Shown here piece after piece: positions 18,480 to 24,330 of a DNA stretch of 64,000 nucleotides (position 1 is the first letter of the stretch; every line of letters starts with the position of its first letter). Both the position numbers and the translations under genes were made by a program. Source of the DNA: an uncultured candidate division Zixibacteria bacterium. GTDB lineage: Bacteria > Zixibacteria > MSB-5A5 > UBA10806. A model generated the notes under the pieces. That model was not told the origin of the DNA. It did no database searches and saw only the letters and a program-made list of their open reading frames with translations. The stretch covers positions 64,001-128,000 of the forward strand of contig CAWFQL010000012.1 of the NCBI GenBank assembly GCA_963817915.1. The letters are read 5' to 3'.

Positions 18480-19691
18480 TTAGACGTCACTCTTGAACGG
18501 CCAGGCCGGCAGATTGCATCGACGAGGATGATCCGTGCGGAATCCAAGCGCGTAATCTGCCTGCATCAGCTTATGGATTTCGCGTGTGCCCTCATAGATC
18601 GATGCTCCCTTGCAATTTCGGTAGAACCGCTCGACAGGATATTCATCGGAGAAACCATATGCTCCGTGCACCTGAACCGCGTCGGAGGCAGCCTTTTCGG
18701 CTTCCTGACAGCATATCCATTTAGCCAGCGATGTTTCTCTGGTGGCCCGCTTTCCTTGATTGCGAAGCGATCCGGCCTTTAGCCAGAGCAATCGAGAATA
18801 TTCATATCCGGCAATCATGCCAGATAACATTTCCTTTACCAGTTGATGCTCGGCTATCGGGACAGTAAAGGTGTGACGGGTATGGGCGTAGTTGAGCGAA
18901 GCGTCCAGACAGGCTTTCACTAATCCTGTCGATCCCGCCGCGACAGTATATCTACCTTGCTCCAGACAGAACATGGCGATTTTGAAACCTTCACCTTCAT
19001 TGCCAAGCAGATTTTCCTGAGGCACTTCAACATCCTGCATGGCAATCGAGCCCGTATTTCCAGCGCGAACACCGAGCTTGCCGTGAATTGTAGCGGTTGT
19101 CACTCCCGCGAATGACCGTTCCACAATAAATGCCGAGATACCGCTATGGTCGCGCTTGTTTTTCTTGGCTATATCTGTCCAGGCGAAGATCAGGAAGTTG
19201 TCGGCGACATCTGCAAGACTGATCCACATCTTTTCGCCGTTGAGAATATACTTATTTCCCTTTTTGATCGCGGTGGTCTGAATACCTACAACATCCGAAC
19301 CGGCATTGGGCTCGGTTAATCCAAAGGTCGCTATTTTTTCGCCTTTGGCCTGAGGAACGAGATATTTCTCCTTTTGGGCTGGATTGCCCCAGGATAGCAT
19401 TGTCAGTGAATTAAGGCCGATATGGACAGATAAGATTACGCGCGCCGATGTGTCAACATATTCCAATTCTTCGCAGGCCAGGCCCAAAGAAATATAATCC
19501 ATGCCTGCCCCGCCGTATTTTTCAGGCAGGCAGATTCCGAGAATATCGGCGTCCGCCATTTTGGTCAGGATCGAACGATCAAATTTTTGAGTGCGATCAT
19601 TTTCCTGAATAGTCGGGACAATATTCTTAGCCGCGAAATCCTTGCATAATTTTTGTACTGATATGTGGTCGTCGTTAAGTTCGAAATTCAT
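18480..19691 (-). CDS. Acyl-CoA dehydrogenase family protein
   Basis: LTEPNAGSD, LNGEKMWIS, KLGVRA, VQVHGAYG, IYEGTREI. Confidence 0.93.
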   Translation of the reverse strand: MNFELNDDHISVQKLCKDFAAKNIVPTIQENDRTQKFDRSILTKMADADILGICLPEKYGGAGMDYISLGLACEELEYVDTSARVILSVHIGLNSLTMLSWGNPAQKEKYLVPQAKGEKIATFGLTEPNAGSDVVGIQTTAIKKGNKYILNGEKMWISLADVADNFLIFAWTDIAKKNKRDHSGISAFIVERSFAGVTTATIHGKLGVRAGNTGSIAMQDVEVPQENLLGNEGEGFKIAMFCLEQGRYTVAAGSTGLVKACLDASLNYAHTRHTFTVPIAEHQLVKEMLSGMIAGYEYSRLLWLKAGSLRNQGKRATRETSLAKWICCQEAEKAASDAVQVHGAYGFSDEYPVERFYRNCKGASIYEGTREIHKLMQADYALGFRTDHPRRCNLPAWPFKSDV

Positions 19692-19843
19692 ATTTTTCTC
19701 CTGTAATCAATTCTAAGCAAGATCGCCTTTTTGGCGTAAATAGATAAATGGGACTCTGCCCAAAATACTGCCGTTGACTATAATAAATTTGCCTCCGAAT
19801 ACCAAATAAAATTATCAGGAGCATTTGCTGATAATACCTGCGC

Positions 19844-19877
19844 AAAAAAAACCGCGAATTACATCATAATTCGCGGC
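19844..19877 (-). terminator. Rho-independent terminator of the DUF1573 gene
   Basis: Minus strand CCGCGAATTA-loop-TAATTCGCGG followed by T8. Confidence 0.8.
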
Positions 19878-19907
19878 TTCAATAATCCGATTAAACTAAG
19901 CGAAATT

Positions 19908-20825
19908 TCATGGTCCGGTTTTGGGCTTAGCCTTGGATGTGTCTATCGTCCCCATTGTACCCTTTTGGGGTATATTCTTCGCAGCTGAGGTATCTGCCGG
20001 AAATGCCTGAATCTTGAATGCGGAACTGGAGTCCGGTTTTGTCTGGAATCCTTTTTGTCCCGGAGTAGGAGGCGAGAATGTTTTCTGGGCTGGAGTCGTT
20101 GGCGCCGGTTTTGGCAGCTGTACCGGCGGCGGTTTTAGGCCCTTCATAACAACCGGAATCGTAAATTTTTGCTGGCCATTTCCGGTCAAAGCGAAGGTGA
20201 GTGCCTGTGTACTGTCCAGATCGAAAAACTCGCCTTTCCATTGAAACTCGATTGTACCCTTATCATGCGGTTTTATTTTCTCATCCTTGATTTTCATTTT
20301 CAGATCGCCCTCAGGGCCGAAAAGCGAGGCTAATTGCAAGGTTGAATCGCTTTTATTCTCTAAAACCAATTTGACCTTTTTATTGGCGTCTTTGGTAAAA
20401 TTGACAATGCTCGGCGTATACTTGAATGGCAGCAATGAATCATTTTCCGCGAAAACCTTAGCTGAGAATCCGATTTTCACACTGAGGCTTGTGGAATCAT
20501 TGCAAGATATCGTCGCGTTTTTAACGACTGCCGACTTGGTGTTTCTTGTATTGAAAATTAATTCCACGACCGTGGAATCACCCGGCGCCAATTTGTTTTT
20601 ATGCAATGGCGCGCTTGTGCATCCTCACCCAGGCTTGACGCTGAGTATCCTCAACGTGTCATCGCCGATGTTTAAAATCCAATACGCGTGACGCGCAATC
20701 GAATTCTGAGGAATATTGCCGAAATCCCAATCCTTCTCGGGAACCGAAATCTTCGGGCCGGCGAATACAATCGATGACAGAATCAGTAAGAATATCAACG
20801 CCAAAATTGTCATTTTTTTCATCAA
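19908..20825 (-). CDS. Secreted DUF1573 (Ig-like) protein with an in-frame TGA at 20625-20627; probable selenoprotein (U-G-C motif)
   Basis: ORFs 20625..20825 and 19908..20606 share one frame; junction reads VKPG-TGA-GCTSAPL where DUF1573 has xCGCT; signal peptide; DFG and N-G-L-I motifs; Pro/Thr-rich tail. Confidence 0.8.
20581..20624 (-). promoter_or_regulatory. Candidate SECIS-like hairpin 3' of the in-frame UGA
   Basis: GCGCCA/UGGCGC stem starting 13 nt after UGA with an inner UUG/CAA stem; the A-rich loop is non-canonical. Confidence 0.35.
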
Positions 20826-20896
20826 GAATCCTCCGAGTTGCTCAAATAGAACTCAATTACTCATTCGCCGTTAATATCGGCATTTTATTTTAGCAG

Positions 20897-21811
20897 TCAA
20901 CCTAATTTTGATCTCTTTGCCAGGTATCCGAAAAGCGCCTTGTCAAATGGGACTGATGTATCCAGTAAGTGATAGTCAATCTGGGATTCCCGGCATGCCC
21001 TGGAAATTTTCTCGATATATATATCGAGTCGTTTGATGTATTCGCCGCGTATCTGCCAGGGGTCGGTCAGGAGCTCGGCGCCGGTCTCCATGTCCCTAAA
21101 ACGGGCTTCTGTGCCGTAGTTAAAATTTCTTTCAAATGGGTCGAGCACCTGAAATACTATTACCTCATGCTGGCGATGACGGAAATGCTTAAGTCCCAAA
21201 ATCATCTTGTCAGGATCATCAAGCAAATCTGAGATAACGATAATCAAGCCCCGCCTCTTAATGCGATCAGCCAATTCATGAAACGCGATCGAGGATTCTG
21301 TCCGGCTTGAAGGCAGAGTACTTCCGAGCTGCTGTAGAATTGGAGTTATATGAGATCGAGCCCCCTTGGGAGGGATATAATTGCGCACCTTTTCATCGTA
21401 AACGAGAAGCCCTGGCGCATCCTGTTGGCGGAGCATAAGATAGGACAATGCCGCCGCCAGATAAGATCCATATTCGAGCTTGGTGATTCCGTTGGATTTG
21501 TATCCCATCGAATTGGAAGCATCAAGCAGGATGTAGGCTTTTAAGTTGGTTTCTTCCTCGAACTGCTTGATATAAAAACGATCGGATTTTCCGTAGATTT
21601 TCCAATCGATATGCCTGAAATCATCACCCGGCATGTACTGCCGATGCTCCGCGAATTCGACCGAAAATCCATGATATGGGGATCGATGCAACCCGACTAT
21701 AAAACCCTCGACCACAAGACGGGCTTTAAGTTCAATTGAAGCCAATTTGCTGACAGTCGCAGGGTCAAGGAATTTGCGATAATCGCTTTGTTTTACCCGT
21801 TCTTCAGACAT
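20897..21811 (-). CDS. DUF58 domain protein (MoxR/VWA-associated)
   Basis: [46 protein letters not shown]6-ATG suggests a leaderless mRNA. Confidence 0.93.
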   Translation of the reverse strand: [304 protein letters not shown]

Positions 21812-21908: not shown

Positions 21909-23102
21909 TTACTTGAGCAAAACCAGCCTTGTTATTTCTTTCTTTTCACCCGTGGCCAATAAGGCAAAATATACTCCAGATGAAAAATTGCCGGCATTCC
22001 AGATAACCTCATGCGATCCGGACGACATCTTCCTATCGAGAAGCGTTACCATTTTCCGTCCAAGAATATCGTATATATCGAGTTTTATATTTTCCTCACG
22101 GGCCAGGCTAAATTTAATGATTGTCTGAGAATTAAAAGGATTTGGATATGATTCTATCGAAGACAGAGTCCGAGGCAGTTTTATTTCGTCCGTCGAAGTT
22201 GCGGTTTTTTCGGATAAGAAAAGCTGCGAAAAATAATCTGTCCCGCCGAAAATATATTTATCGAAGAAAAGTAGATTGCCGCTCTCGGTTATAAATGAAT
22301 TTTCATTGATGCAGGCTGACATTGTGTCGGGCCATTCGAACCTGTTGATATTGTTGGGGAGGGCTACGGCTCGCTGCCAGGCTCCATTTTCATAACGGGA
22401 TTTCATCAAAAGATTGATTCTTCGGGAATATATATAATCTGTAAAATAGAGGCTCAATTCGCTCGGATCATAAAAAGCGCTGTAATCGTAGTGACCCTGT
22501 ATATTGATAACATCAGGCATCCGCACCGCTGCTTGCCAGACGCCGTTAACAAATTCGCTTTTGTAAATAGCTCTATTATCGCCGGAGCCGACCCGATCGA
22601 AAAATAGACTGTTCGATCCGGCCGCCAGGCTGGGTTTGAATTCCTCGCTGGATGTGTTAATCGAATCACCCAAATTGGTCGGTGTTTGCCAGACGCCATT
22701 CGATTTGATTGACATCCAGATATCGGAATTTCCCCTGGTTCCGGGCCTGTCTGAACAAAACAGCAGCGTGTCGCCGCCGCCATTAATAAAGGGCATAGTG
22801 CTGCCATAACCTTCGATATTGATTGGCGCGGCCATAAGTGTGGGCGTAGTCCAATACCGCTGGCCGTTATTGCTGAAAGTCATGCGCGATGTATATATCC
22901 TGGCATCTCTGAAATGCCAGAAATAGACGTGGCGGCAATATGTATCGAAATATAATGTCGAATCTTGTTCGCAATATGACGGATTGAAATTTCCGGGATA
23001 TATCGGTTGGCCTATTTCTATGGGTTGATAAGGTCCCCAATCCTGGGCGTACGATAAGGAGCATGCTCCGATGATTGTCAATGATACTACAAATTTAAGC
23101 AT
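21909..23102 (-). CDS. Secreted PD40/TolB-like beta-propeller protein with T9SS type A C-terminal domain
   Basis: Signal peptide SYA|QDWGP; repeats such as SDRPG-DIW-W-P-NLG-IN; C-terminal YPNPFN-IYDILGR-SSGVYF-LLK. Confidence 0.85.
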   Translation of the reverse strand: MLKFVVSLTIIGACSLSYAQDWGPYQPIEIGQPIYPGNFNPSYCEQDSTLYFDTYCRHVYFWHFRDARIYTSRMTFSNNGQRYWTTPTLMAAPINIEGYGSTMPFINGGGDTLLFCSDRPGTRGNSDIWMSIKSNGVWQTPTNLGDSINTSSEEFKPSLAAGSNSLFFDRVGSGDNRAIYKSEFVNGVWQAAVRMPDVINIQGHYDYSAFYDPSELSLYFTDYIYSRRINLLMKSRYENGAWQRAVALPNNINRFEWPDTMSACINENSFITESGNLLFFDKYIFGGTDYFSQLFLSEKTATSTDEIKLPRTLSSIESYPNPFNSQTIIKFSLAREENIKLDIYDILGRKMVTLLDRKMSSGSHEVIWNAGNFSSGVYFALLATGEKKEITRLVLLK

Positions 23103-23127: not shown

Positions 23128-24330
23128 TTATTTAAGCAGAGTAAGCTTGATACTTTCGAATTTATTCGTTGTCTGCAATCGAGCGAAATAAATCCCGGTG
23201 GCAACATTACCTGCATCCCAAGTTATACTATGATTACCTGCCGATAGGTTCCGGTCGACCAACGTCTCGACCTTCCGGCCCAACAAATCATAAATATCAA
23301 TTTTCACTGCGTCACTGGCCGAGAGATTGAATTTAATCGTCGCCTGCGAATTGAAGGGATTAGGATACGATTCAATGGCCGAAAAGTTCTTGGGCTGATC
23401 CAAATCGCCTTCGATTCCAACTGCCCTTTCGGAAAAATACATAAACGAATAATGGTCCGGATATTCACACAGTATAAATTTATTGAAGAAAAATTTCGTT
23501 CTGTCATAGCTCATAAAAGCATTTTCATTGGTGCAGTACGATAGAGAATCGGGATCGATGCAGGAAAAACCGTTGATATTCTCATCGAGCGGCTCCGGTT
23601 CCTGCCACGAGCCGTTAACATTAGCTGATTTCATCATTAGTTGAATTCTTCCATATGGATCACTATCGGTATAATATAAGACATTTTCTAAGGGGTCGAA
23701 AAACGGCGCATATGTATAGTACCCGGGTGTATTAATAATATCGGGCAGACGCTGAGCCGATTGCCAGACACCATCGATAAGCTCGCTTTTATAAATACCT
23801 TCATAATTAGCTATGCCAAATCGCGAGAAATACAAAGCATTTGCCCCCGACACGAAACATGGTTTTAAATCAGATAAATATCTGGAATTAATGGAATCGC
23901 CGAGATTAGCGGGTTCGGTCCAATTTCCATCTATTTGTATGGTGAGCCAGATATCCGCAAAACCTTCTGTTCCCGGTCTTATGGCACTGAAAAAAAGTGA
24001 ATCACCCCCGGCAGTGATAAATGGCATTGCGCTTCCATATTCGTCAATATTAATCGGCGCCGGCATCGCGACGGGATCTGACCAAAATACCTGACCATTT
24101 TGATCTCTTGATAAATGAGACGTATATATCTTGGCATCACTGTGAAAAATACCGGGAAAGGAATTAGTACTGAAATATAGAGTAGAATCACGATCACAGT
24201 ATGATGGGCTAAAATTACCAAATGGGCTATCAGGCGCATTAATATTAATGGCCTGCGCCGGGCCCCAATCCTGCGCGTAGGAAATCGAAACAATTCCCAA
24301 AGTTGCGAAAATCAAAAACAATCTATTCAT
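23128..24330 (-). CDS. Paralogous secreted PD40 beta-propeller protein with T9SS type A C-terminal domain
   Basis: SYA|QDWGP; same repeats; YPNPFN-IYDLLGR-ATGIYF-LLK. Confidence 0.85.
   Translation of the reverse strand: MNRLFLIFATLGIVSISYAQDWGPAQAININAPDSPFGNFSPSYCDRDSTLYFSTNSFPGIFHSDAKIYTSHLSRDQNGQVFWSDPVAMPAPINIDEYGSAMPFITAGGDSLFFSAIRPGTEGFADIWLTIQIDGNWTEPANLGDSINSRYLSDLKPCFVSGANALYFSRFGIANYEGIYKSELIDGVWQSAQRLPDIINTPGYYTYAPFFDPLENVLYYTDSDPYGRIQLMMKSANVNGSWQEPEPLDENINGFSCIDPDSLSYCTNENAFMSYDRTKFFFNKFILCEYPDHYSFMYFSERAVGIEGDLDQPKNFSAIESYPNPFNSQATIKFNLSASDAVKIDIYDLLGRKVETLVDRNLSAGNHSITWDAGNVATGIYFARLQTTNKFESIKLTLLK

Follow-up and report, generated by a model that had tools for sequence, protein, structure and literature searches.

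The 64,000-nt stretch of DNA analysed herein (the window, comprising positions 64,001 to 128,000 of contig CAWFQL010000012.1 from an uncultured candidate division Zixibacteria bacterium) contains on its minus strand a gene for a DUF1573 protein (19908..20825) that has a TGA codon within its reading frame. Judging from sequence comparison and from the gene content of the source genome, we consider it highly probable that this gene specifies a single exported protein of approximately 304 aa, in which UGA codon 67 is decoded as selenocysteine (Sec) by SelA, SelB, SelC and SelD. This assignment is founded on the presence of complete Sec machinery, on the invariant cysteine column into which the codon falls, on the conservation of the UGA and on the use of TGA as an otherwise ordinary stop. 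The gene is a new, more distant member of a selenoprotein family that has already been listed. Two hairpins follow the UGA, and the recoding signal appears, on balance, to be bipartite, with the second (hairpin 2) as the SelB site and the first (hairpin 1) as a spacer.

The first-pass annotation, made from the sequence alone, had described two open reading frames (ORFs) that together form one frame of 305 aa with a UGA inside it. This is borne out, in that ORFs 20825..20625 (66 aa) and 20606..19908 (232 aa) share a single frame and are separated solely by the TGA at 20627..20625, which lies in the context GTC AAG CCT GGG TGA GGA TGC ACA (VKPG-U-GCT) and would supply the first position of a U-G-C motif. 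The read-through product comprises 305 aa from TTG 20825 or 304 aa from ATG 20822, with U being residue 67 when counted from the TTG. Due to a GGAGG sequence at 20834..20830, 7 nt ahead of it as read from the sequence, ATG 20822 is the likelier start. Beyond the TGA the frame is open for 238 codons, until a terminal stop that is itself a TGA (19910..19908). As had been claimed, the downstream half has no Shine–Dalgarno sequence or ATG of its own: its first in-frame start is TTG 20606, and the single Shine–Dalgarno-like stretch (GAGGA) is located approximately 15 nt upstream, at an unusable distance. The gene is split by gene callers, and only the 232-aa downstream half is present in the protein database (entry P0002).

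With regard to the machinery required, the source genome (3.33 Mb in 22 contigs, 94% complete) harbours selC, selD, selA and selB contiguously in one cluster on the minus strand of contig C6 (198041-202493), with all four, whose presence had been put forward as a check, scoring above curated cut-offs. The cluster consists of the gene for tRNA-Sec (selC, C6:202401-202492; 66.5 bits in Rfam against a gathering score of 47, and called by ARAGORN as tRNA-SeC with anticodon tca), selD (C6:201342-202265; 357 bits), selA (C6:199909-201228; 484 bits) and selB (C6:198041-199900; 362 bits). The selD gene contains one in-frame TGA of its own, and its product is itself a predicted selenoprotein. Across the phylum, selD was found in 61 of 61 sampled genomes, with a TGA in 51 of the 66 matches listed. 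The 13 best-scoring selD matches (loci L085-L097, from 13 other genomes of the phylum) have no TGA and occupy open frames of 713-796 aa, which suggests a fused, Cys-type SelD; some of those genomes also have an ordinary Sec-type selD.

At E ≤ 0.001 the protein database yielded 190 homologues, of which the best 120 were listed and 21 aligned. The column of U67 is Cys in all 21 aligned homologues, and residues P65, G66, C67, G68, C69 and T70 are invariant, in agreement with the earlier proposal that the UGA occupies a conserved Cys of the DUF1573 CGC motif. Since gene callers cannot reveal forms with a TGA at this codon (U-forms, as opposed to the Cys-bearing C-forms), these were sought by six-frame searching of genomes. 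A match was present in every one of 201 genomes of the phylum; among the 150 matches listed, one TGA occurs in 83, no stop in 57 and other stops in 10 (counted by hand). When 24 genomes of the order were searched, the best match in each of the 13 same-family genomes had exactly one TGA. The proposed comparison of TGA with TGY at this codon thus yielded both states, as the loci fetched comprise 37 distinct U-forms and 20 C-forms. All of the U-forms read PG-U-GC-T/S, with the TGA at the identical codon and the second Cys always retained, and this includes 17 of 17 orthologues from the order. The surroundings of the gene are kept as well, in the arrangement DUF58–selenoprotein gene–acyl-CoA dehydrogenase: DUF58 is located upstream in 13 of 16 relatives' loci, with a protein identity of approximately 80-83%, whilst the selenoprotein itself shows merely 41-49% identity to its relatives over full-length matches. 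Given this conservation of the UGA at one codon across relatives, and of the neighbouring genes, a sequencing error or decaying pseudogene is, as judged from these sequences, excluded for practical purposes.

The names of homologues place the clade within the Zixibacteria. A pattern search of genome contigs for PGCGCT-containing sequences, which retrieves Cys forms only, gave titles that were mostly from Zixibacteria, with some labelled Ignavibacteria, and no U-forms from outside the phylum. A tree of 57 sequences requires nine Sec/Cys changes, at least eight of which are forced by well-supported branches. Sec and Cys paralogues often stand in tandem on one contig (L037, L043, L044, L047, L064 and L076), with L037 being a U-C-U triple.

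The family to which the gene belongs has a history as a selenoprotein family. A DUF1573 domain-containing protein (pfam07610, with the motif UGC) is tabulated amongst prokaryotic selenoprotein families in one review (PMC9312934), and a 2026 review likewise lists DUF1573/PF07610/UGC (PMC13188914); both trace this entry to a paper on the symbionts of Olavius algarvensis (PMC1976440), Table 2 of which gives OS_HP2 with two selenoproteins and no Cys homologues. The protein from the window matches NCBIfam NF041425, the 'OS_HP2 family (seleno)protein', over positions 1-97 of the 98 in the model (E = 8.7e-17). On the basis of this match, and of the corresponding order of table rows in the reviews and in PMC1976440, OS_HP2 is here equated with the DUF1573 entry of the reviews. 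It is this tabulated entry, together with the NF041425 match, that makes the gene a new member of a known family, and its score of 61.3 bits, against a curated cut-off of 100, positions it on a more distant branch, outside the curated subfamily. The two share the same Pfam domain and a U-G-C motif in which Sec stands for the first Cys of CGC. The gene described here differs in having a second immunoglobulin (Ig)-like domain and a P/T-rich tail, and in its host, which belongs to the Zixibacteria rather than the Desulfobacterota. No selenocysteine insertion sequence (SECIS) is displayed for OS_HP2 according to the Figure 5 legend of PMC1976440. Literature searches on Zixibacteria selenoproteins returned no description of a selenoproteome for the phylum and nothing on this DUF1573 family. 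The prior listing of the family was absent from the first-pass annotation, as was the second of the two hairpins that follow the UGA.

The first of these hairpins had been noticed beforehand, along with the lack of a G in its loop, and both points hold. Hairpin 1 (20585..20612, minus strand; stem GCGCCA(UU)/(AA)UUGGCGC) begins 15 nt downstream of the U of the UGA and positions its loop approximately 21 nt past the codon, with the minimum-energy apical loop, CAUAAAAA, containing no G. Hairpin 2 (20563..20576, minus strand) has the form UCCAC-GGUC-GUGGA, extends to nine pairs in this gene (20580..20559) and has a loop that begins 53 nt after the UGA. The 72 nt past the UGA fold into both hairpins at -23.3 kcal/mol, against a mean of -17.0 kcal/mol for shuffled sequences (z = -2.37), and 6 of 200 shuffles equalled this value. 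The 12-nt core of hairpin 2 occurs a single time in the genome. A terminator scan flagged 20580..20559 together with the following AUUUUC; a role for hairpin 2 as a transcription terminator was rejected because the U-rich tail is not conserved in orthologues.

According to PMC13188914, the consensus for a bacterial SECIS (bSECIS) requires a stem of 4-16 bp capped by an apical loop of 3-9 nt with a G in its first two positions, a distance of 16-37 nt from UGA to loop and a folding energy of ≤ -7.5 kcal/mol. These published criteria were applied using our own implementation, rather than bSECISearch itself, in a strict and a bulge-allowing version. Hairpin 2 satisfies all of them but spacing, and its GGUC loop fits the consensus pattern G[G/U]NN. 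Like a canonical bacterial SECIS of the Escherichia coli fdhF type, it is situated within coding sequence after the UGA and has a short stem with a small loop in which a G is followed by G or U; it differs in that 53 nt separate the UGA from the G-loop hairpin (or 42 nt, in a sister group of U-forms), as opposed to the 16-37 nt of the consensus and the 11 nt to the E. coli stem, and in that another Sec-specific hairpin fills the canonical place. The apical loop of E. coli fdhF also reads GGUC, as does that of hairpin 2.

Comparison of the U-forms with the C-forms reveals a hairpin with a G-G loop at fixed spacing in 36 of the 37 U-forms. This spacing is 53 nt in the 17 orthologues of the order and 42 nt in the sister group (n=19), or 41 nt in its member from the source genome, a second copy. 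The sister-group counterpart of hairpin 2, GCUGUC-GGN-GACAGC, possesses 6-7 bp and a GGU, GGC or GGG triloop. Full pairing is seen in 16 of 17 orthologues of the order and 18 of 19 sister-group U-forms, whilst amongst the 20 C-forms it is found in none on the order-group helix and in two (L044 and L054) on the sister-group helix. These two are nested in U clades as young U-to-C switches and have kept both hairpins, with L044 being a tandem copy on very short branches; in older C-forms the hairpin pairing has been lost. This is what one would expect were Sec decoding the sole purpose of both hairpins. All 17 order-group sequences are identical across the 13 columns TCCACGGTCGTGG, whilst the final A of the hairpin differs in one of the 17. 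This invariant stretch covers four 4-fold degenerate third positions (in TCC, ACG, GTC and GTG), whilst neighbouring degenerate sites vary freely. The Ser of the D-S-T motif is encoded by TCC in the order group and by AGC or AGT in other groups. Sister-group U-forms have A-V-G where most C-forms have A-P-G, and the GUC of this Val is base-paired with the GAC of Asp. RNAalifold independently recovers hairpin 2 in both the order and the sister groups.

Hairpin 1 behaves differently, in that its structure has been conserved and its sequence has not. In the 17 orthologues, paired cells make up 85% of this hairpin; sliding the 3′ partners by 1-3 columns leaves 24-49% paired over the whole two-hairpin structure. 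A single pair is AU in seven sequences and GC in six, and in three sequences shifted stems are formed by different residues. Of eight possible pairs, the median is 7-8 in U-forms and 3-4 in C-forms. Both hairpins are thus specific to UGA-bearing forms. In the covariation analysis of the 3′ hairpin, which had been suggested as a check, the AU/GC exchange and the high proportion of paired cells are there, but 29 of 500 shuffles reach the same score and RNAalifold did not recover hairpin 1.

Which of the hairpins is bound by SelB can be approached from the other Sec gene signals of the phylum. The selD genes of 16 relatives have one hairpin, in which a 7-bp stem bears a triloop of GGU, GUU or GGC, a design resembling hairpin 2 of the sister group, but with the loop at the canonical +23 and no intervening hairpin. 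The selD of the source genome is an exception, having a small hairpin and thereafter one of 8 bp whose GGUC apex lies at +35. The genome contains 181 hairpins with a GGUC loop; for 13 of them, an in-frame TGA flanked by open frames is located 20-65 nt upstream. Only two of these 13 are located in recognisable genes, namely selD (8 bp) and the DUF1573 gene (9 bp); one intergenic-looking hit also has an 8-bp stem. It is this similarity of loop design to the selD genes of the phylum, together with the restriction of the GGUC hairpin in recognisable genes to selD and DUF1573, that favours hairpin 2 as the SelB site.

The decoding of UGA codon 67 by SelA, SelB, SelC and SelD would give U-G-C where most homologues have C-G-C. 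Under the bipartite arrangement, SelB would bind the invariant distal hairpin, UCCAC-GGUC-GUGGA, and the variable proximal hairpin 1 would fold 28-31 nt out of the path as a spacer, which may bring the distal loop close enough to a ribosome that has paused at the UGA. Hairpin 2 of the sister group comes immediately after hairpin 1, and with the latter folded out a path of approximately 10 nt plus the stem remains. This is close to the geometry described for E. coli, where the spacing from the UGA to the SelB-binding stem–loop is fixed at 11 nt and G23 and U24 are essential (PMC8659212).

The foremost alternative, which we regard as rather unlikely, accepts the protein as a selenoprotein but takes hairpin 1 for the SelB-binding SECIS; hairpin 2 would then have an accessory role (pausing, stabilisation or mRNA protection) or serve some other purpose. 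Hairpin 1 does lie where an E. coli-type SECIS is found, both in its start and in the distance of its loop from the codon, and it shares with hairpin 2 its specificity to Sec forms; moreover, several hairpin 1 loops of the sister group (GAAA, GAUA and GACA, at a spacing of 21) satisfy the consensus. Against this, the hairpin 1 of this gene does not fit the consensus, nor does that of 15 of the 17 orthologues of the order, and its loops vary, with some lacking any G. Furthermore, consensus-type hairpins within the 16-37 nt window are no commoner in U-forms, being present in 11 of 37 U-forms and 5 of 20 C-forms when bulges are allowed (4 of 37 and 1 of 20, respectively, under strict criteria), and hairpin 2 is the only element invariant in sequence.

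A number of points weigh against a bipartite signal, or against parts of the wider interpretation. No hairpin of this gene conforms to the bSECIS consensus, strictly or with bulges allowed, as hairpin 1 breaks the loop-G rule and hairpin 2 stands at 53 nt rather than the allowed 16-37 nt. A distal SelB site is unusual, given the fixed 11-nt spacing of E. coli (PMC8659212). The covariation of hairpin 1 is modest, with one pair changed on both sides, and comes with the shuffling and RNAalifold results given above; hairpin 2 never varies, and therefore offers no covariation. Separately, an Rfam scan of 19500-21200 at E ≤ 10 returned two unrelated matches of chance level and no SECIS family, and for 19850-20900 neither a public sequencing run nor an RNA data set was listed. 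The NF041425 score lies below its cut-off, as noted, and the proposed function is drawn from the motif, with Foldseek having returned only fold-class matches and the sequence search of the PDB being empty. A literature search on bacterial SECIS elements and SelB found no two-hairpin bacterial SECIS in print, which is not proof of absence. Taking the bipartite signal one step further, we suggest only tentatively, at slightly less than even likelihood, that the DUF1573 selenoprotein genes of Zixibacteria possess a distinct class of bacterial SECIS, in which a SelB hairpin with an invariant stem and a GG(U/C/G)-type loop, 42-53 nt beyond the UGA and hence past the 16-37 nt of the consensus, is brought into range by a spacer hairpin that is variable in sequence but conserved in structure.

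A reading of the UGA as Cys or some other standard amino acid, through a suppressor or a tRNA resembling tRNA-Sec, is far less probable. The position is Cys in most homologues, and insertion of Cys by a dedicated UCA tRNA had been offered in the first-pass annotation as an alternative. However, the only tRNA with a UCA anticodon amongst the 45 of the genome is tRNA-Sec, which scores above the Rfam threshold and is encoded beside selD-selA-selB, leaving that proposal without a candidate; SelA and SelD are intact, and selD itself carries a TGA. Nor does the genome show a general reassignment of UGA (codes 4 or 25), under which TGA stops would be rare or absent and a UCA tRNA for Trp or Gly would be expected: TGA is a common stop and there is no UCA tRNA besides tRNA-Sec. 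Indeed, TGA terminates 415 of the 1432 open frames of at least 300 codons, and the code is therefore not reassigned, as had been concluded earlier from fewer genes. Least probable of all is that the TGA is a nonsense mutation or sequencing error in a pseudogene or between two separate products, since, although gene callers split the frame and the database holds only the downstream half, a TGA occupies this codon in all 17 orthologues of the order and in 37 distinct relatives, the 238 codons after it are open, a Pfam domain spans it, the downstream half has no proper ribosome-binding site, and the upstream 66 aa amount to a signal peptide and half a domain. The earlier proposal of an exported U-x-C selenoprotein with an atypical SECIS is accordingly the one that the Sec machinery, the TGA-bearing relatives and the lack of a consensus hairpin in the gene favour.

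The protein itself begins with what looks like a signal peptide (20760..20822, minus strand; MKKMTILALIFLLILSSIVFA followed by GP, with probable cleavage after VFA), recognised by eye from its hydrophobic N-terminus and modelled as a helix at residues 2-20; the protein is thus probably exported. The first Ig-like domain, DUF1573 (PF07610; 20487..20747, minus strand), matches at aa 27-113 across the Sec codon (E = 7.6e-21, 74.4 bits against a gathering cut-off of 26.1), and PF22544 also matches, at aa 24-121. An AlphaFold model, based on a 22-row alignment, has a mean predicted local distance difference test (pLDDT) score of 82.1 and a predicted template modelling score of 0.69, and consists of an N-terminal helix, two beta-sandwich domains and a tail, as the Ig-like domains and P/T-rich tail described previously would lead one to expect. 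Strands of domain 1 fall within residues 32-125 and those of domain 2 within 134-227, with the latter, a second Ig-like beta-sandwich at approximately aa 134-227 (20145..20426, minus strand), having only a weak match to ASH below the cut-off. The tail (19911..20123, minus strand) is rich in Pro, Thr, Lys and Gln, is disordered (pLDDT < 50 at residues 257-294 and 296-298) and, in the alignment of 21, is confined to the closest homologues. After the terminal TGA there is, by eye, a terminator-like stem–loop with a T-run (19844..19877, minus strand), in line with the terminator reported earlier, though the pattern scan did not list one there.

In the model, U67-G68-C69 follows strand 58-65 and precedes a further short strand, and the next conserved patch in the alignment is P81-G-D-S-T85. 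The exported location and the pairing of Sec and Cys two residues apart hint weakly that the U-x-C pair in this loop of domain 1 may form an extracytoplasmic selenylsulfide redox centre, or a centre binding soft metals or metalloids. Foldseek against the PDB produced fold-class matches only, to Ig folds of the ASH/HYDIN type, HYDIN-like ciliary proteins and CEP192 SPD-2, as well as to 2qsv, a Porphyromonas protein of unknown function, and a sequence-profile search of the PDB gave no solved relatives.

Beyond the window, the source genome carries a second DUF1573 U-form on contig C5 (29789-30100), in which the TGA occupies the corresponding codon (VSPG-U-GCT) and both hairpins are present. In this copy (C5:29789-30503; L023:1417-2158, plus strand) the frame shifts approximately 45 codons past the TGA, before the second domain, such that the domain 1 frame ends and an overlapping frame carries on the homology, owing either to an error of assembly or to decay of this copy. 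Immediately downstream (L023:2172-2897, plus strand) is a 241-aa ORF with three His/Cys-rich repeats (GMNPPHGQPNHRCDI..VGAPL), which has no match in Pfam or NCBIfam and could encode a metal-binding partner, and upstream at the same locus is a gene for an ABC-transporter ATPase.

A genome-wide scan of coding potential for selenoprotein genes gave 438 candidates, the majority of them neighbouring genes that share a frame. A further candidate selenoprotein is thioredoxin-like (C6:120087-121271, minus strand; L115:291-1472), with the motif W-U-G-A-C, a signal peptide indicative of export and a tetratricopeptide repeat-like tail; the Thioredoxin Pfam domain (aa 35-109) spans its U. By eye, this gene has an ordinary hairpin with the loop CGUGA approximately 21 nt after the UGA, which the minimum-energy fold did not show. 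Repeated 'VYDPA-U' candidates (VYDPA-TGA-VKSG; C18:35235-39298) are antisense to a repetitive ORF of 1152 aa and were taken as repeat artefacts. Within the window, upstream of DUF58, the minus-strand genes at 21909-23102 and 23128-24330 encode paralogous proteins of approximately 400 aa, both ending in a type IX secretion sorting domain (Por_Secre_tail).

For annotation, the consequence is that the split introduced by gene callers in this gene also affects dozens of relatives; as to mechanism, the standard bacterial SECIS model misses these genes. The family itself was already known, and what is added is its phylum-wide expansion with frequent Sec/Cys switching, together with a SECIS outside the consensus model. 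In Zixibacteria the DUF1573 Sec/Cys paralogues form a large and dynamic set; they frequently stand in tandem, and at least eight switches are needed amongst 57 sequences. These constitute a natural data set, in which 36 Sec forms have two Sec-specific hairpins and the hairpins of Cys forms decay with the age of the switch, and they yield a testable hypothesis on how far from the UGA SelB can bind. According to BSepDB, 87.4% of bacterial selenoprotein genes have a canonical SECIS, leaving approximately one in eight without; if true, a bipartite SECIS could explain part of this remainder.

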